Part shown: positions 42,332-50,535 of the stretch, piece after piece | How positions within the stretch are numbered: the first letter of the stretch is position 1 | Layout: each line of letters opens with the position of its first letter | The notes under the pieces: generated by a model | Databases searched by the model: none | What the model saw: the letters and a program-made list of their open reading frames with translations, nothing else | Told to the model about the DNA's origin: nothing | Source: an uncultured Clostridia bacterium | Lineage (GTDB): Bacteria; Bacillota; Clostridia; TANB77; CAG-508 | DNA length: 64,000 bases | NCBI GenBank assembly: GCA_947628735.1 | Contig: CANRAY010000002.1 | Coordinates: 35,482-99,481 of the forward strand | Direction: 5' to 3' | Translations under genes and position numbers: made by a program

Positions 42332-43495
42332 TTGTTACGACTACTTGCAGCAGATGTAGATATTTGTCGAATAAGTAAAGTGTTGGGAAGGCAACGGATA
42401 AAGTCATCCATCACAAACTCGACAATTATCATCGAGGCCGATGAGATTTCTGATGATGTAGTTGATATGCTTTTTGCAAATGCAACAATTATCAGTGCTC
42501 AAAACTATTGCTTGAATGAAGCAGAAACAGTTATTGACACAAAAATAGAATCTGAACAAGACCATGAACCCAGTATTGACTCATCTGTTAAACAATTCGA
42601 ATCTATCAAAACAAGTGAAATAGATACAAATGACAATACTTCCAGTGATGAAACAATAGATTCCGAATACTATGTGCAAGAACAGAAGGATATGTCTTTA
42701 GAATTGGGTATTGAAACTGAATCGGAAGATAAACCAACTCAAGCAAAAATTTCTGAATTAGAAATGGTTTACAGAGGTGAGGTTTACAAATGGAATAATG
42801 AGAGATATGCTGATGATAAAGAGGGACAGATCAAAGAATGTGTAATAATCATTCAAAATGATTACCAAAACTCTGCATCAGATGATACCATTGCTCTGTT
42901 TTGTACAACTCATTATGAGGAACGTGCTCCCATTCACTTTTTATTTCAATTCACCGAAAGAACTATGATTGACCACAGTGCTAAAAGGTTAGAACTGTTT
43001 GATCATTGCACTTTTTTTGTTGGTCATATTAAGGGCATTAGTCGAAAGCAGTTAGGCACGTATTTAGGAACTATGACTAATGAGTTCATGAATACATTGC
43101 AACCTACGATTGACTTTTGTCTTGGATTAAAAAGGTCTAGGACAGTTAATTGGATTCAATTACAGATTCTTTCAACAATAAATATGGAGGATTTGTTCAA
43201 AATTTCTGAGTCCAAAGTAAGTGACAATCAAAAGGTCGATGAATTTTTAGAACTTTTTGGCTTTGATATGTCAATCAATGGCATGCAATATGTCAAAGAT
43301 TCTATCTTGGTTGCTAAAAAATTGAGCGATTATAGATTGGAGTTTCTGGCAGAAATTGTTGCTGAAAAAAGGCAAGTCGATGCTAACGAAGTTTTAAGAT
43401 TAATAGTAGCGAGAATTAAAGAAAATTTTCATTTCAATAAGTCTCCTGCTATTTCGTTCATTAGGCTAATCGACAGGTTATTGAAGAAGAGGTGA
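42332..43495 (+). CDS. Uncharacterised multidomain protein A: small N-domain, acidic linker, MazF/PemK-like barrel, Spo0A_C-like helical DNA-binding domain
   Basis: TTG start with AAGGAGG 7 nt upstream.
- aa 61-140 are D/E/S/T-rich.
- aa 147-266 read YRGEVYKW...ECVIIIQNDYQNSASDDTIALFCTTH..., following the MazF hallmark RGD[IV]Y...RP.[LV][IV][IV].ND...T.I..P.T.
- aa 300-387 read FGFDMSINGMQYVKDSILV...VLRLIVARIKENF...SPAISFIRLIDRLL. This parallels the Spo0A C-domain present in this same window ([17 protein letters not shown]...[13 protein letters not shown]...[12 protein letters not shown]). Confidence 0.6.
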   Translation: MLRLLAADVDICRISKVLGRQRIKSSITNSTIIIEADEISDDVVDMLFANATIISAQNYCLNEAETVIDTKIESEQDHEPSIDSSVKQFESIKTSEIDTNDNTSSDETIDSEYYVQEQKDMSLELGIETESEDKPTQAKISELEMVYRGEVYKWNNERYADDKEGQIKECVIIIQNDYQNSASDDTIALFCTTHYEERAPIHFLFQFTERTMIDHSAKRLELFDHCTFFVGHIKGISRKQLGTYLGTMTNEFMNTLQPTIDFCLGLKRSRTVNWIQLQILSTINMEDLFKISESKVSDNQKVDEFLELFGFDMSINGMQYVKDSILVAKKLSDYRLEFLAEIVAEKRQVDANEVLRLIVARIKENFHFNKSPAISFIRLIDRLLKKR

Positions 43496-44775
43496 ATCGT
43501 GTGAATTTATCATTAACAGTAACCAAGAAGGCAAATACGAATATGTCTAGCTTGTTAAAGCAAATGTGTTCGTTAAAGTGTCGGATCAGTGTAGATTTGA
43601 TAAATGGTAGCATTTCCATTACCGATATGGATGACAATGATGTTGATAGCATTATTGATGCTGTCAACGAGGCTTTCGAGATTTCAAGTATTGACATTGT
43701 TCCGAGCGTTGTAGTCCCTGAACCTGAGAAGCCTGTTATTACGGAAGATTCCATTGAATTCGAGAAGGTGGAATTTAACGATACAGAAGTACAAGAACAG
43801 GTAAATAAACTTCTTAGAATTATCTACTGGGCTATGTATTCCAATAAGGCAAAATCTCGTGATATTTGTCAGTATTTAATGTCAACAGGTACGGAAATTG
43901 CGATGAAGTACAATCCAAAAGTTCCCACAAAATTCGCCATTGGAGATATTGTTGACTGCAACTATGGTTCTCATTTGAAAAATGAGATTTCTGGTGGCCA
44001 TGTTCACTCTATCATTTGCGATATTGATGAGAACGAAATGGTATACGCTGTTCCTATTACTAAGACACAAATCGAAAACGATGAAACAAGGTATTTGCAG
44101 TTTGCTGCAAATATTGATGTAGAGTACAATGATGCAAGATTTGCTGGTGGTACAGTTCTTCTCAATATGGGAAGATACATCCATCAACTGAGAGTCATCA
44201 AAGTTGTCGGTCATGCTTTACCTGAGTTCTTTCACAAGATCTTAATTGCATTACCAGCTACAGTTAGTTTTTCTTCTAAATATGACAACTACGAAGATCA
44301 ATTTGCTGAAAAGTTTGGTGATGTTAGTAATGATGACAGTATGTTGTCATTTGAGAGCTCTGAAGAACCTGAGGTTAAAAAAATTGAGGACGACTCTGTT
44401 GAAGAAATTTCTGGTAAGGTAATTTCTTCCGAAGATTATGTTGCTGACATTATTGCAGATGCTTTGAATTCTTTGGATAAGTCTAAGCCTGTAGAAGACC
44501 AAATTGATAATTTTCTTGATGCAATTGGTTTGTCTAAAAATGTACTTATTGTGAGAAATGCTTTCATTGCTGCTTGCTCTGTGGATAAAGTCACTTACAA
44601 TAATCTCGTCATCGAGTTGCAAAAAGAGATGCCTAAAGTTCGTGGTGAAATCATTAAGCTAACTTTAAAAAACGAATTTAAGAAATGGCTAAGTAATCAT
44701 CCTGATGTGATAGCGAATTATTCTAAAATCTCTATTATTGTTTTGCTCAAGCTCTTTGCGAAGAAGATGTCATAA
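43492..44775 (+). CDS. Uncharacterised multidomain protein B (paralogue of A): small N-domain, helical segment, MazF/PemK-like barrel, acidic linker, helical C-domain
   Basis: The GTG at 43492 overlaps the stop of A. An alternative GTG at 43501 has GAGG 8 nt upstream.
- aa 148-255 read AIGDIVDCNYGSHLKNEISGGHVHSIICDIDENEMVYAVPITKTQ...GRYIHQLRVIKVVGHAL, which is MazF/PemK-like.
- aa 262-318 are acidic.
- The C-terminal IDNFLDAIGLSKNVLIVRNAFIAA... parallels VDEFLELFGFDMS... of A.
- The N-domain ISVDLINGSISITDMDDNDVDSIIDAV parallels ITNSTIIIEADEISDDVVDMLFA of A. Confidence 0.6.
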   Translation: MNRVNLSLTVTKKANTNMSSLLKQMCSLKCRISVDLINGSISITDMDDNDVDSIIDAVNEAFEISSIDIVPSVVVPEPEKPVITEDSIEFEKVEFNDTEVQEQVNKLLRIIYWAMYSNKAKSRDICQYLMSTGTEIAMKYNPKVPTKFAIGDIVDCNYGSHLKNEISGGHVHSIICDIDENEMVYAVPITKTQIENDETRYLQFAANIDVEYNDARFAGGTVLLNMGRYIHQLRVIKVVGHALPEFFHKILIALPATVSFSSKYDNYEDQFAEKFGDVSNDDSMLSFESSEEPEVKKIEDDSVEEISGKVISSEDYVADIIADALNSLDKSKPVEDQIDNFLDAIGLSKNVLIVRNAFIAACSVDKVTYNNLVIELQKEMPKVRGEIIKLTLKNEFKKWLSNHPDVIANYSKISIIVLLKLFAKKMS

Positions 44776-44804: not shown

Positions 44805-44838
44805 CTGTGTGATAGGGTTCTATCACACAGTTTTTTTA
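44805..44838 (+). terminator. Rho-independent terminator of the two-gene cassette
   Basis: Perfect 11-bp stem ctgtgtgatag (44805-44815) / ctatcacacag (44820-44830), a 4-nt loop, then TTTTTTT. Confidence 0.8.
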
Positions 44839-44895
44839 TTATAGTAAAAAAGTAGGTTTCAAAAAACCTCCCTTTGAAGAGTTTTATTATATTTC

Positions 44896-44925
44896 TTGAC
44901 TTTTTCATAAAAAATATATTATAAT
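44896..44925 (+). promoter_or_regulatory. Near-consensus sigma-A promoter (TTGACT-18-TATAAT) driving a short convergent transcript
   Basis: -35 TTGACT at 44896-44901 and -10 TATAAT at 44920-44925, with no long ORF downstream. Confidence 0.5.
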
Positions 44926-44931
44926 AAATAT

Positions 44932-45016
44932 AGGAAATGGAGAAACCACAAACGTGGTTTGCCGATAAAGATATGAAAAACACACCTGAACCGGTCAAGT
45001 AACAGATGTGTTTTTT
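44932..45016 (+). ncRNA. Candidate about 85-nt small RNA, which could alternatively encode a 21-aa ORF at 44937-45002
   Basis: Bounded by the promoter at 44896-44925 and the terminator at 44979-45016. It contains the hairpin AAACCAC-aaac-GTGGTTT. The possible ORF is MEKPQTWFADKDMKNTPEPVK, with AGGA only 1 nt from its ATG (poor SD spacing). It converges on the 36-aa peptide gene. Confidence 0.4.
44974..45016. terminator. Bidirectional terminator shared by the convergent small transcripts
   Basis: Stem aacacacctg (44979-44988) / cagatgtgtt (45003-45012). One C-A mismatch on the plus transcript becomes a G-U pair on the minus transcript. T-runs follow on both strands. Confidence 0.6.
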
Positions 45017-45022
45017 ATTTGT

Positions 45023-45133
45023 CTATTTGCTTAAAAATATTGTAAATATAATTAAGGCAAATACTATAATAGTTTCGACAAGTAAAGCAAATAAAAGTAA
45101 GTATATTATTTCTAATAAAACTGCTTCTATCAT
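45023..45133 (-). CDS. 36-aa hydrophobic peptide (candidate type I toxin-like or small membrane protein)
   Basis: MIEAVLLEIIYLLLFALLVETIIVFALIIFTIFLSK, with GGAGG (45141-45145) 7 nt upstream of the ATG at 45133 and the terminator 10 nt after the stop. Below the length cut-off of the ORF track. Confidence 0.5.
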   Translation of the reverse strand: MIEAVLLEIIYLLLFALLVETIIVFALIIFTIFLSK

Positions 45134-45216
45134 AGCACCACCTCCATTCTAAAGGACAAGCCTTTATATGTAAAGTGGCAAACCACATCTGCTTATTCTC
45201 ATTTCCTATGTTAATA

Positions 45217-45245
45217 ATTTTACGATATTATTTTAATTATGTCTA
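45217..45245 (-). promoter_or_regulatory. Candidate sigma-A promoter for the 36-aa peptide transcript (TAGACA-17-TAAAAT)
   Basis: On the minus strand, -35 TAGACA (45240-45245), a 17-nt spacer, and -10 TAAAAT (45217-45222). The predicted start coincides with the right copy of the inverted repeat. Confidence 0.4.
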
Positions 45246-45516
45246 TGCAATTTATAAATTTATTATTTTTTCCTAAATTTCCTCATAGTAGAATTTCATC
45301 TGTAAATCCTTGTATATAAAGATAATTACTTTATAAATTATTTAATAAATGTATAGAATTTGCAAAGTTTTTCACAGGTTATATAATATAAATTTCCTGT
45401 GCAAATTCCGAGCAGAAACAAAAAAATAATGAAAAATGACAAATAATTTTGAAAATAGGTTAAATAATGAAAAAAAATAAAATGTAGTCATATCAATACT
45501 TGCAAGTAATGGTATA

Positions 45517-45559
45517 CAAAAATAAAACAGTCTGAAATTGGTTAAATTTCAGACTGTTT
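45517..45559 (-). terminator. Rho-independent terminator immediately after tRNA-Leu
   Basis: Perfect 14-bp stem aaacagtctgaaat (45525-45538) / atttcagactgttt (45546-45559), with a T-rich run on the minus strand. Confidence 0.75.
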
Positions 45560-45648
45560 GGTGCAGATGGCCGGAATCGAACCGGCACGGGAGGATAAGT
45601 CCCGCAGGATTTTAAGTCCTGTGCGTCTGCCAGTTCCGCCACATCTGC
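45559..45648 (-). tRNA. tRNA-Leu (anticodon UAA), class II with a long variable arm and an encoded CCA
   Basis: The reverse complement GCAGATGTGGCGGAACTGGCAGACGCACAGGACTTAAAATCCTGCGGGACTTATCCTCCCGTGCCGGTTCGATTCCGGCCATCTGCACCA folds as a cloverleaf: 7-bp acceptor GCAGATG/CATCTGC, anticodon stem CAGGA/TCCTG with loop CTTAAAA, variable-arm stem GGGA/TCCC, and T-arm GCCGG-TTCGATT-CCGGC. Confidence 0.95.
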
Positions 45649-48174: not shown

Positions 48175-50535
48175 TTGAAAGTGGTGAAAACTTTGAAATA
48201 TATTGACAAATTTTTAAAATTTTTAAATACAGATAGAAATACTTTTGTTACATATGTATTAACCCTTGTTTCTATTTATGTTGTTATTGATAGAGTTATT
48301 GAATTAATGTTTATGATATTTACGGGTGTTTCATATTCTTATTGGGGACCAATTGAATATACTCTTGCTTTTGCAGCAATTATTTTGGCTTTTTTCTGTT
48401 CTTTTGGTTCAAAATTTGCTAAGGCGGATGTTGATAAACTAAGATTTTTTAATACTTATACCATAGCGTTATATATTGTATTTATTTCATTCTTAGTGCA
48501 AGGATTAAATTCAATGGCTTGGTTAGGTATTTTATCACTTCCAAATTACCCAGAACTCGCTACAGAATTTTCGTATTTATTTAGACCAGCTTTTACAGCA
48601 GTATCACTTTACTTACCACTTGTAACATTCTACAAACTATTTAAATGGCTAACATTTACTATCAACGATACTAAAGATATTAAAGATTCTATCTTTGATT
48701 ATGGTGGTATTAGTTTAGCTCCTACTGATAAAGATGCAGGAAAATATAGTGCAGAAGTTATGCTTTGTGTTGATTCAGAAAGTGGTGAAGATGTATATAT
48801 TCCAGAATCTAAGAGATTAGAATCTTTACTAGCTGTTGGAGTTTCTGGTTCTGGTAAAACTACTATGATTTATGAACCTATGATTGCTAGGGATTTAGAT
48901 AGAAAATACTTTTTCCGTGAGATTTCAAAAGAAATGGGATTTACTGCATTAAGAACAGGAATTGCGTATTTAAATTGTCCTTATGATAATGCTTATTTAA
49001 ATGAAAACTTTTCACTTAATTTATTATCACCAAACTCTGAAAAAGTAGATTTATATAATAAATATATGAAGAAAATGATTATTGGAAATTTGAATGGTCA
49101 ATATGTTTATAGAAATTTTGGTCTTACATATGTTTCAGCAGAATATGAATCTATTGAAAAAATGGTTAAAGTAGCTAATAACTTTAAGATTAAAGTAAAC
49201 TTGATTGATCCTAATAATTCAAATTCACCTGGTTTAAATCCATTTTCATATTCAGATCCATTAAAAACTGCTTCAGCTATATCAGAAGTTGTAAAAGGAT
49301 TATATGAAAGTACTCGTCCAGATTTACAGGTAGCATTAAGAGAAAATCTAGCTATGCAGGCTATTGATAATTTATCAATTTTGTTAAAAGAGATATATCC
49401 TTTACAAAATAATGGTGATTTACCTAACCTAGAAGATTTGCTTAATATGTTAAATGATTTTTCTTTAGTAGAGAAAATGACAGAAGATATGAAACAAATT
49501 CCAGAACTTGCAGAAAAATATAGAATTTTAATTAAGTACTTTGAAAATAATTTTTATTCAACAGGAAAAGATATCAGTATGATGCAAAGTTCATTATATA
49601 GTACTTCTGCTGAATTAGATAATTTATTAAGATATCCAGGATTAAAAAATATATTGTGTAACCGTACTAATAATTTAAATTTCGATACATCTTTGGCTAA
49701 TGGAGAAGTTACATTTGTATGTACAAGAAGAGGAGACTTTGGTGCTACTGCTCATAAAGCTTTCGGTAAGTTTTTCTTATTGTTAATGCAACAATCTGTT
49801 CTTGCAAGACCTGGTAATGATTCAAATAGAATTTCTCATTTCTTATATATAGATGATTTTCCAGACTTCTTATGTAAGGCAATAGAACCTATCTTCACAA
49901 TTTATAGAAAATATAAAGTAGGTTGTATTTTATCTGCACAAACATTATCACAATTAGGTGCTGATAAGAGTAACTTTAGAAGTGAGATTCTTGCTAACTG
50001 TGTTAATAAAGCAATTTTTGGTAATGCTTTACCAGAAGATGTACAATGGTGGCAAACTGAATTACAAGATAAGAGAGAGTGGAGATGGACCAAAAATTAT
50101 GAAACTGATGCTGAGAAAGGCTTAGGTTATGATTCTAAATTAGGTAACATCGGTTATTTATGGGTTCCTAACTACGCTGCTGGTAAAATTATGTCATTAA
50201 AATCAAAGCAAATTATTTTTAAAGTAAAAGATAGTAAAGGAAAAAGTTATGTTGCAAAAGGTAAATTAGATTTTCTTGAATCTAAATATAAAGAGCCTAA
50301 AAAGATTAAAGAATATAACTTTGAAAAATTTACTAATGGAATAGCAGATGCTGATAAAGTTAAAGAAACTTCTAAGAAATTCAGAGGAAACTTTGCAGCT
50401 GCTGCCTCATCTAATGATCCAACAGATTTTTCATCTGAAAGTGATCCAATTAAGATGGATAATAGTGATTCAAAATTCTTACTTGATAACGAAGATGCTA
50501 TTATATTTGATTTTAAAAGAGATAAAAATAATTAA
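48175..50535 (+). CDS. VirD4/TraG/TraD-like type IV coupling protein-type ATPase with an N-terminal multi-TM domain
   Basis: 4-5 N-terminal TMs, Walker A LLAVGVSGSGKTT, Walker B-like HFLYIDDFPDF, and the TraG-D_C-like segment CILSAQTLSQLGADKSNFRSEILANCVNKAIFGN. The start codon is uncertain among TTG 48175, GTG, and the downstream TTG. Confidence 0.55.
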   Translation: MKVVKTLKYIDKFLKFLNTDRNTFVTYVLTLVSIYVVIDRVIELMFMIFTGVSYSYWGPIEYTLAFAAIILAFFCSFGSKFAKADVDKLRFFNTYTIALYIVFISFLVQGLNSMAWLGILSLPNYPELATEFSYLFRPAFTAVSLYLPLVTFYKLFKWLTFTINDTKDIKDSIFDYGGISLAPTDKDAGKYSAEVMLCVDSESGEDVYIPESKRLESLLAVGVSGSGKTTMIYEPMIARDLDRKYFFREISKEMGFTALRTGIAYLNCPYDNAYLNENFSLNLLSPNSEKVDLYNKYMKKMIIGNLNGQYVYRNFGLTYVSAEYESIEKMVKVANNFKIKVNLIDPNNSNSPGLNPFSYSDPLKTASAISEVVKGLYESTRPDLQVALRENLAMQAIDNLSILLKEIYPLQNNGDLPNLEDLLNMLNDFSLVEKMTEDMKQIPELAEKYRILIKYFENNFYSTGKDISMMQSSLYSTSAELDNLLRYPGLKNILCNRTNNLNFDTSLANGEVTFVCTRRGDFGATAHKAFGKFFLLLMQQSVLARPGNDSNRISHFLYIDDFPDFLCKAIEPIFTIYRKYKVGCILSAQTLSQLGADKSNFRSEILANCVNKAIFGNALPEDVQWWQTELQDKREWRWTKNYETDAEKGLGYDSKLGNIGYLWVPNYAAGKIMSLKSKQIIFKVKDSKGKSYVAKGKLDFLESKYKEPKKIKEYNFEKFTNGIADADKVKETSKKFRGNFAAAASSNDPTDFSSESDPIKMDNSDSKFLLDNEDAIIFDFKRDKNN

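Follow-up and report, generated by a model that had tools for sequence, protein, structure and literature searches.

What kind of element is made by two short genes that face each other across a single terminator and whose RNAs begin with almost the same sequence? Such an arrangement lies in a stretch of 64,000 nucleotides (nt) on contig CANRAY010000002.1 of an uncultured Clostridia bacterium (the whole analysed stretch is hereafter the window), where a minus-strand gene for a 36-amino-acid (aa) hydrophobic peptide converges on a plus-strand small RNA (sRNA). A preliminary description of this module had likened it to type I toxin–antitoxin loci, and had suggested that the shared leader is a recognition element for adjacent MazF-like and helix-turn-helix (HTH) proteins or, alternatively, the terminal repeat of something like a miniature inverted-repeat transposable element (MITE). 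We found that the module is probably a type I toxin–antitoxin-like locus of a new family, which combines a layout like that of the par locus of plasmid pAD1 with a new peptide and with same-sense leaders that co-evolve. Its features, in window coordinates, are these:

44896..44925, plus strand: sRNA promoter, TTGACT-18-TATAAT (sequence and family promoter scoring)
45245–45217, minus strand: toxin promoter, TAGACA-17-TAAAAT, the weaker of the two (sequence and family promoter scoring)
44930..45020, plus strand: candidate antitoxin sRNA, about 90 nt, non-coding, with predicted ends (fold and covariance model)
44930..44963, plus strand: sRNA copy of the shared leader, with block 1 ATAGGAAATGGAGAA, sRNA-specific middle ACCACAAAC and block 2 GTGGTTTGCC
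45177..45209, minus strand: toxin copy of the shared leader, with block 1 ATAGGAAATGAGAA, toxin-specific middle TAAGCAGAT and block 2 GTGGTTTGCC
44976..45016, both strands: bidirectional terminator common to both RNAs, with arms 44980–44988 and 45003–45011, a 14-nt loop and A/T runs on each side
44972..45019, both strands: predicted RNA–RNA complementarity, 48 bp, perfect
45133..45023, minus strand: candidate toxin gene for the 36-aa hydrophobic peptide; the stop codon abuts the terminator
45145–45141, minus strand: Shine–Dalgarno sequence GGAGG, 7 nt before the ATG
45134..45210, minus strand: toxin 5' untranslated region (5'UTR), a three-helix translation lock (RNAalifold and pair counts)
45184..45192, minus strand: leader segment GCAGAUGUG, complementary to the 5' arm of the terminator in the toxin mRNA, CACAUCUGU (45002–45010)
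44882..45275: full DNA homology to other family members (blastn against about 120 family loci)

Most of this layout had been anticipated. Both inward-facing promoters, the 36-aa open reading frame (ORF) with GGAGG at 7-nt spacing and the hairpin with U-runs for both strands (an A-run on its left and a T-run on its right) lie where the preliminary description had placed them, and the 21-aa plus-strand ORF that it mentioned is present at 44937–45002. The near-identical leaders that it reported on the two predicted RNAs align as ATAGGAAATG(G)AGAA...CA.A.GTGGTTTGCC. This match is not due to chance: GTGGTTTGCC occurs exactly twice in the 64 kb, both times in the module, and the two arms align over about 98 nt, promoters included, with a score of 31 versus 14.8 ± 2.7 (maximum 25) in 1000 dinucleotide shuffles. 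Two statements required adjustment. The repeat is imperfect and inverted, as described, but extends beyond the 10+4+10 identical blocks; with G·U pairs allowed it gives a potential 30-bp RNA stem (14 + 16 bp). Likewise, the same sequence does stand near both RNA starts, but the −10 box stands 4 nt ahead of the block for the sRNA and 7 nt ahead of it for the toxin, so the two RNAs probably do not share exactly equal 5' ends.

A scan of metagenome contigs, for which nine peptide residues (VETIIVFAL) were back-translated into a DNA pattern that imposes no selection on the leader or the sRNA, recovered at least 120 loci in gut metagenomes. Among the matches listed, 105 loci carry the MIE... ORF and represent 63 distinct modules, with identity down to 49%. 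The whole layout (toxin promoter, leader, Shine–Dalgarno sequence, ORF, terminator, and sRNA with its promoter) recurs in essentially all family loci; blastn alignments of the window with these loci mostly run from 44882–44920 to 45209–45216, and a few extend to 45275. Pattern scans of viral contigs yielded one true locus (L024), a complete homologous module at the end of a prophage contig, and inspection and the covariance model described below showed the other viral-contig matches to be chance. A blastn search of the 381-bp unit against GenBank phages and PLSDB plasmids returned only chance AT-rich matches. Judged by sequence, this is a real, previously unannotated family of type I toxin–antitoxin-like loci in gut Clostridia and, occasionally, prophages.

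The 36-aa ORF is coding, and it is conserved as protein. The window peptide is MIEAVLLEIIYLLLFALLVETIIVFALIIFTIFLSK, and the family contains, among the matches listed, 98 intact 36-codon ORFs that specify 42 distinct peptides. Codons 19–27 were fixed by the search pattern; outside them, residues M1, I2, E3, L6, I29, S35 and K36 are invariant. Single-base codon differences among the 98 intact ORFs are synonymous in 43% of cases versus 22% expected, and the Shine–Dalgarno region, GGAGGTGGTGCTATG, is almost invariant. The peptide lacks Pro, Gly and Trp, and its C terminus is LSK. We infer that it is a single-helix membrane peptide and probably toxic. In some clades the leader contains an AUG (AGGAAAUGAGAAUAAGC...) whose reading frame continues into the toxin ORF, for example in L028:3867-4146, and gene callers record 58–78-aa products from this frame (MRISRCGLP...MIEA..., for example proteins P0001 and P0004). 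The frame is not kept across clades, so these longer products are probably an annotation artefact.

The sRNA is non-coding, as the frame and length (1–30 aa) of its small ORF differ between members. From its 5' end it consists of a single strand, hairpin 1 (AAACCAC-AAAC-GUGGUUU, 44943–44960), a spacer with AUAUG, and the terminator; the middle segment ACCACAAAC folds back onto block 2, and the fold energy is −23.9 kcal/mol (z −3.55). A covariance model trained on 35 family sRNAs matched the window at 44930–45025 with 100.7 bits, and nothing else in the window rose above noise. No Rfam 15 model matched the window at its gathering score except tRNA-Leu, and the best local matches were at chance level (for example ohsC, 18.8 bits versus a cut-off of 50). 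The two promoters are asymmetric. Scored over 45 non-redundant members, the sRNA promoter comes close to consensus, with a mean of 11.4 of 12 matches and an invariant TATAAT 4 nt (once 5) before the block, and the toxin promoter is weak, with a mean of 9.0 of 12 matches, a spacer that is always 17 nt and a −10 box 6–7 nt before the block.

We found that the toxin leader forms a translation lock in which both the start codon and the Shine–Dalgarno sequence are buried. The consensus fold of 39 distinct toxin 5'UTRs, obtained with RNAalifold and pair counts, contains three helices. H1 joins 45206–45210 to 45131–45135 (CAUAG:CUAUG, the latter containing the start codon). H2 joins 45173–45180 to 45136–45143 (UGCCACUU:AGGUGGUG) and occupies the ribosome-binding region including the Shine–Dalgarno sequence; UGCCACUU sits at and just 3' of the conserved GUGGUUUGCC block. 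H3 is a hairpin (45151–45165) that differs in sequence between clades and stacks between H1 and H2. In these helices 97.8% of cells are paired, versus 30–63% when the partners are slid. Compensatory changes affect six pairs, comprising all five of H3 and one of H2; the H2 change is C-G to U-A in L112, and eight improvements from U·G to C-G add to it. On this evidence the shared leader acts in the toxin mRNA as a translation lock. When the toxin RNAs were folded as a consensus, in full-length and in read-through form, a long-range helix, GCAGAUGUG:CACAUCUGU, was chosen as well. Both of its partners are nearly invariant, which places it beyond the reach of covariation, and the opposite terminator arm and the loop vary. 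The invariant arm is consistent with a second, predicted role in pairing with the leader segment GCAGAUGUG.

At their 3' ends the two RNAs meet in the shared terminator. Its hairpin, which has one C·A mismatch in the plus RNA corresponding to a G·U pair in the minus RNA, was missed by a simple terminator scan because the loop is longer than 8 nt. Within the family the arm ACAGATGTGT (sRNA sense) never varies, unlike the other arm and the loop. As one terminator serves both RNAs, the predicted RNAs match at their 3' ends in an unbroken complementary stretch of about 48 nt (44972–45019), in agreement with the 3' overlap proposed at the outset. Cofolding of the two RNAs, another suggestion of the preliminary description, gave the same picture: RNAcofold formed 48 intermolecular pairs in a 48-bp 3' duplex (free-energy difference, ddG, −49.7 kcal/mol) and left the toxin 5'UTR lock and sRNA hairpin 1 unchanged. 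A scan for covariation between the two RNAs detected nothing beyond the trivial 3' overlap and short invariant GUGG/CCAC matches.

The conservation of the shared block at the nucleotide level, noted previously, is stronger than had been stated, as the two copies co-vary. In 45 loci the leaders differed within a locus by 13.7, versus 14.7 after permutation (0 of 10,000 permutations, p < 1e-4). The within-locus difference was 0.84 versus 1.39 for block 2 (p < 1e-4), and p was 0.01 for block 1. We observed no within-locus excess similarity in the promoters (10.22 versus 10.21, p = 0.5) or in the 30 nt after block 2. The U-run has equal length in both copies and exists in three states (UU, UUU and UUUU), and several changes appear in parallel in the two leaders, including GCC to GCU in L127, AUGAAAAGGA in L052, ACA in L050, GAAG in L024, and AUAAG in L026 and L071. 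The 9-nt leader middle remains RNA-specific in all 45 members. Concerted evolution is limited to the transcribed leader blocks and does not include the promoters, as a result of either selection or correction. Broad gene conversion of the whole inverted duplication finds no support, because the promoters lack within-locus similarity.

One RNA in which such matching would matter is a toxin-sense transcript that reads through the terminator, where a 30-bp stem would join the leader to the antisense of the sRNA 5' region. In this stem 96.4% of cells are paired versus 39–52% when slid, and 9 pairs show double (compensatory) changes versus 2.7 ± 1.0 in shuffles. Transition-type mismatches in the toxin sense comprise 146 G·U versus 15 A·C, or 27 versus 15 without three G·U positions that are fixed family-wide and thus amount to three events rather than some 120. 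Such an imbalance between the strands points towards selection acting on an RNA of toxin sense. The window also contains, 60 nt past the sRNA start, a minus-strand hairpin at 44853–44868 (AGGTTT-TTTG-AAACCT, followed by ACTTTTTT) that could terminate toxin-sense read-through there; it is unconserved in the family (5/45).

The two genes decay asymmetrically. Deletions or start-codon losses have inactivated the toxin and left the sRNA intact (98–113 bits) in at least six independent events (L040/L073, the L049 group, L055, L082, L103 and L114); L065, L073, L074, L089, L099 and L109 are duplicates of such orphan sRNA loci. Among the orphan sRNA loci, some have deletions, with differing breakpoints, that remove the toxin promoter, leader, Shine–Dalgarno sequence and first 8–18 codons, and others have lost the start codon. 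The reverse, an ORF kept and an sRNA lost, was seen in one locus only (L128). There the ORF is intact, and unrelated DNA replaces the terminator and sRNA after the stop codon, which could reflect an assembly chimera. In L104, a new TGTGATATAAT promoter replaces the toxin promoter and the leader up to GTTTGCCAC.

The scaffold also carries a second peptide. Directly beside the family module of one locus lies another module (L133:13128-13455) with the same leader (CATAGGAAATGAGAATAAGCAGATGTGGTTTTGCCACC), the same fold hiding the Shine–Dalgarno sequence, the same terminator arm and an sRNA that scores 76.9 bits. It encodes an unrelated 37-aa peptide, MVKVILFFIISLMLSLTLNVALTAVLYKNWVDKQLHK, with a hydrophobic helix and a Trp/Lys-rich tail, which by its sequence looks like a classical type I toxin. 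Degenerate copies of the sRNA of this second module are present in L043 (9047–9140) and L121 (629–724). Two toxin peptides have thus been seen so far on the leader, sRNA and terminator scaffold.

The type I toxin–antitoxin-like reading draws on the conserved ORF, Shine–Dalgarno sequence, promoters and terminator, on the covarying 5'UTR lock, on the unconserved sRNA ORF, and on the repeated loss of the toxin with the sRNA kept. We propose that a weak sigma-A-type promoter would produce an mRNA of about 235 nt for the 36-aa predicted single-helix membrane peptide, and that the near-consensus convergent promoter would produce the non-coding sRNA of about 90 nt. The mRNA leader blocks translation by placing CAUAG on the start codon and UGCCACUU on the Shine–Dalgarno sequence, with the variable hairpin between them. 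By analogy with known type I systems whose RNAs overlap at the 3' end, the 48-nt 3' duplex may allow abundant sRNA to keep the toxin mRNA inactive or to direct its decay. The shared leader is the core of the lock, and the sRNA carries a diverged inverted copy of it. The best-supported reason for the matching of the copies would be the pairing of the toxin leader with the antisense of the sRNA 5' region, in the 30-bp stem past the terminator; the sRNA might then be a leader mimic that competes for the leader's partner. The next candidate is a par-like second contact between AAACCAC of the sRNA and GUGGUUU of the toxin leader; this sRNA arm, AAACCAC(A), can pair with (U)GUGGUUU there as well as with its own 3' arm. 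Only tentatively do we put forward the broader scheme, in which the sRNA is a same-sense mimic of a self-inhibitory leader, the copies are matched through leader:antisense pairing or competition for one locus-encoded partner, and the whole is a portable scaffold for unrelated toxins.

Several results weigh against these proposals. The peptide had no match in Pfam (even at E ≤ 10), NCBIfam, PHROGs or PADLOC, and it is acidic (E3, E8 and E20), without the charged C-terminal tail typical of type I toxins. The stem requires terminator read-through, and the toxin-sense U-runs are 4–8 long (mean 5.8). A conserved second terminator downstream was not found, with 5/45 members having one versus 9/45 on the control strand. 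The accessibility of the Shine–Dalgarno sequence and AUG is not raised in the read-through form (predicted 0.18 versus 0.21), and the idea that the stem opens the Shine–Dalgarno sequence is unsupported. The reduction of the fixed G·U positions to three events belongs here too, and each of these positions also has a separate reason in its own RNA. As for a second contact, sRNA hairpin 1 shows zero compensatory changes, and a common variant, AAUCCAC, weakens it without compensation. Cofolding the sRNA 5' domain with the toxin 5'UTR gained only −1 to −9 kcal/mol, and across duplexfold and cofold the gains were weak and inconsistent.

It is also possible, although we would give it less than an even chance, that the likeness of the two leaders serves no purpose in trans. 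On this view the sRNA gene would be an inverted duplicate of the toxin promoter and leader, its blocks occasionally homogenised in the DNA by template switching or short-tract gene conversion across the inverted repeats, and the sRNA would act only via the 48-nt overlap. Such a history would fit the alignment of the window arms over about 98 nt including the promoters, and parallel changes that include indels in homopolymer runs are what conversion yields; the uncompensated hairpin 1, the absence of a thermodynamic sign of the stem opening the Shine–Dalgarno sequence and the absence of a conserved downstream terminator point the same way. However, the lack of within-locus excess similarity in the promoters and in the 30 nt after block 2 is at odds with it, and a continuous conversion tract would have to skip the RNA-specific 9-nt middle every time, in all 45 members. 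Blocks of 10–14 nt are, moreover, very short for recombination, and a G·U:A·C ratio of 146:15 (27:15 without the three fixed positions) would not be expected if a DNA process indifferent to strand were at work. DNA-level correction sits awkwardly with a middle and promoters that are left untouched. A different objection concerns the peptide, which might be no toxin but a small membrane protein with a physiological role, its synthesis tuned by mRNA structure and antisense RNA. Its net acidic character, the conserved mid-membrane Glu-Thr (E20-T21), the LSK end in place of a basic tail, the lack of a toxin-family match and the many copies in core chromosomal intergenic regions beside spo0A, spoIIID, yabG, veg or tRNA genes would suit such a protein. 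We nevertheless consider this unlikely, because the toxin gene was lost independently with the sRNA intact (at least 6 events versus 1), a strong antisense promoter opposes a weak peptide promoter and a doubly buried translation start, the neighbours are highly varied, some copies lie beside serine recombinases or a prophage end, and the same scaffold bears a classical-looking toxin with a W/K-rich tail.

The two explanations of the repeat offered by the preliminary description fared worse. One is a MITE-like mobile repeat, with which we considered an invertible (phase-variable) segment between inverted repeats; either would account for a unit of about 330 bp flanked by imperfect inverted repeats, for the many alignments to relatives that stop at the outer edge of the toxin-side repeat, and for the many genomic contexts. 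The block is undispersed, however, with 164 of 165 occurrences inside modules in 768 kb of family loci and a single copy of the unit in the window; the inverted orientation, with the strong promoter facing the toxin leader, was found in 0 of about 60 distinct modules; and no recombinase is consistently linked. In every member the promoter hexamers, at fixed spacing (17 nt) and at a fixed distance from the repeats, lie outside them, so the repeats are not termini, and we regard this explanation as highly improbable. The idea that the repeat is an RNA or DNA binding site for adjacent PemK/MazF-like or HTH cassette proteins has only adjacency in the window in its favour (the cassette ends at 44775, and its terminator lies at 44805–44830). 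Neither PemK-like protein has a homologue in the roughly 120 family loci or the 16 related chromosomal ones, and the repeats persist wherever the module occurs in these unrelated contexts, which leaves this binding site a next to negligible prospect.

The type I toxin–antitoxin-like reading can be set against known systems. The module has a small (<60 aa) hydrophobic ORF with its own ribosome-binding site and, in the predicted transcripts, a complementary antisense RNA, which are general criteria for type I loci. Peptide toxicity that the RNA neutralises is a further criterion, and the indications for it are indirect: at least 6 independent inactivations of the toxin gene left the sRNA in place, versus 1 reverse case. 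Its closest counterpart in layout is par of pAD1, which has convergent promoters, a shared bidirectional intrinsic terminator with complementary stem-loops and a short repeat near both 5' ends, and in which an intramolecular stem-loop hides the Shine–Dalgarno sequence and a helix engages the extreme 5' end of the toxin mRNA (PMC7472228). Like par (RNA I/RNA II) and the Fst/Ldr group of Enterococcus and other Firmicutes, the module has convergent promoters and one bidirectional intrinsic terminator, and its covariation-backed H2 and H3 hide the Shine–Dalgarno sequence while H1 engages the extreme 5' end. In par, DRa and DRb form a direct DNA repeat at the 5' ends, which makes the two RNAs complementary in that region and lets the antitoxin cover the start site (PMC7472228). 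By contrast, the repeats of the module are inverted in DNA, so both RNAs carry the same sequence in the same sense, and its conserved 5' complementarity is about 8 nt, AAACCAC(A):(U)GUGGUUU, in the leader and not at the start site. The peptide also differs from Fst/Ldr toxins in lacking the Fst signature (PXXXG(C), a conserved Trp and a charged C-terminal tail), and has no match to Pfam Fst_toxin.

A hydrophobic peptide and a 3'-overlapping convergent antisense RNA are likewise found in txpA/RatA, bsrG/SR4 and yonT/SR6 of Bacillus subtilis and in CD2517.1/RCd8-type loci of Clostridioides difficile, which often lie in prophage-like or variable regions (PMC6563280, PMC5848175). The module resembles them as a small hydrophobic peptide gene and a convergent RNA whose 3' ends overlap, but its overlap covers the terminator only (about 48 nt) and stops at the stop codon, and its toxin and RNA have no sequence relation to theirs. 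To our knowledge, these systems have not been described as having a same-sense shared leader. In hok/sok of plasmid R1, the toxin mRNA is inert because its 5' end pairs over a long distance with a 3' element. Similarly, two pairings are predicted in the module, one joining the leader segment GCAGAUGUG to a terminator arm, the other joining blocks 1 and 2 to antisense sequence of the sRNA region. The module differs from hok/sok in having no overlapping mok-like frame and in having its antisense RNA at the 3' end, not the 5' end, and its 5'–3' helices are predictions, one with invariant partners and the other dependent on read-through.

Type I toxin–antitoxin loci are hard to find by homology. 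Exact look-up returned no database record for the 36-aa peptide or for its 427-aa neighbour; a full HMMER search against 1.8 billion representatives gave 16 close and zero distant relatives of the peptide, none of which bears a name; and a literature search with the peptide motif gave no match. The family is thus new and unannotated, common in human-gut Clostridia, an under-explored group, and its peptide has no name in any source and no match in any profile library. In Clostridia, type I loci are essentially known only from C. difficile (PMC6563280). Conservation of the RNA scaffold is high enough for a covariance model of it to be used in searching for further toxins, and the repeated pattern of toxins lost and sRNAs kept suggests that gut genomes contain orphan antitoxin RNAs. 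The same-sense co-evolving leaders depart from the par paradigm of complementary direct repeats; if their matching is functional, antisense control of a toxin mRNA would here take another form.

Family modules have diverse neighbours, with 195 gene clusters among 377 flanking ORFs. These include spo0A, spoIIID, yabG, veg, sortase, spore photoproduct lyase and serine recombinases, as well as a prophage end with tail, amidase and integrase genes, and about 12 modules lie within 250 nt of tRNA genes (Leu, Cys, Tyr/Met, Gln/His, Thr and Gly). In the window, tRNA-Leu(UAA) is at 45559–45648 on the minus strand, and the module lies about 310 nt beyond the tRNA 3' end; neighbouring genes encode SpoVB/MurJ-like, HU, rubredoxin and DUF1836 proteins. 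Through the SpoVB-like neighbour we retrieved 16 related Clostridia loci, the closest represented by a rabbit-gut metagenome-assembled genome with 81% identity in the SpoVB-like protein. Together with the neighbouring genes, these loci assign the window to an uncultured gut Clostridia lineage. The module and the PemK-like cassette are absent from all 16, and in the closest relative (L003:10902-12200) unrelated, more GC-rich DNA follows tRNA-Leu and rubredoxin is missing. The module therefore sits in a variable spot whose edge is marked by tRNA-Leu(UAA). A look-up with the HU neighbour returned two metagenome contigs, both short, with 99.96% and 96.5% identity to the window; they probably come from this organism or a close relative.

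The PemK-like cassette consists of two overlapping plus-strand ORFs (42332–43495 and 43492–44775; 387 and 427 aa), each with a central PemK/MazF-like domain (E 2e-4 and 3e-3, below the Pfam cut-off) between acidic low-complexity flanks. The cassette ends at 44775, and the terminator that follows it at 44805–44830 is strong. Further along, 48175–50535 on the plus strand encodes a 786-aa membrane protein with a weak match to TraG-D_C (TraD/TraG-type). In relatives this protein adjoins the SpoVB-like gene (89% in L003, 74% in L004 and 55% in L016), and because it is conserved there it looks like a core gene and not part of a mobile element.

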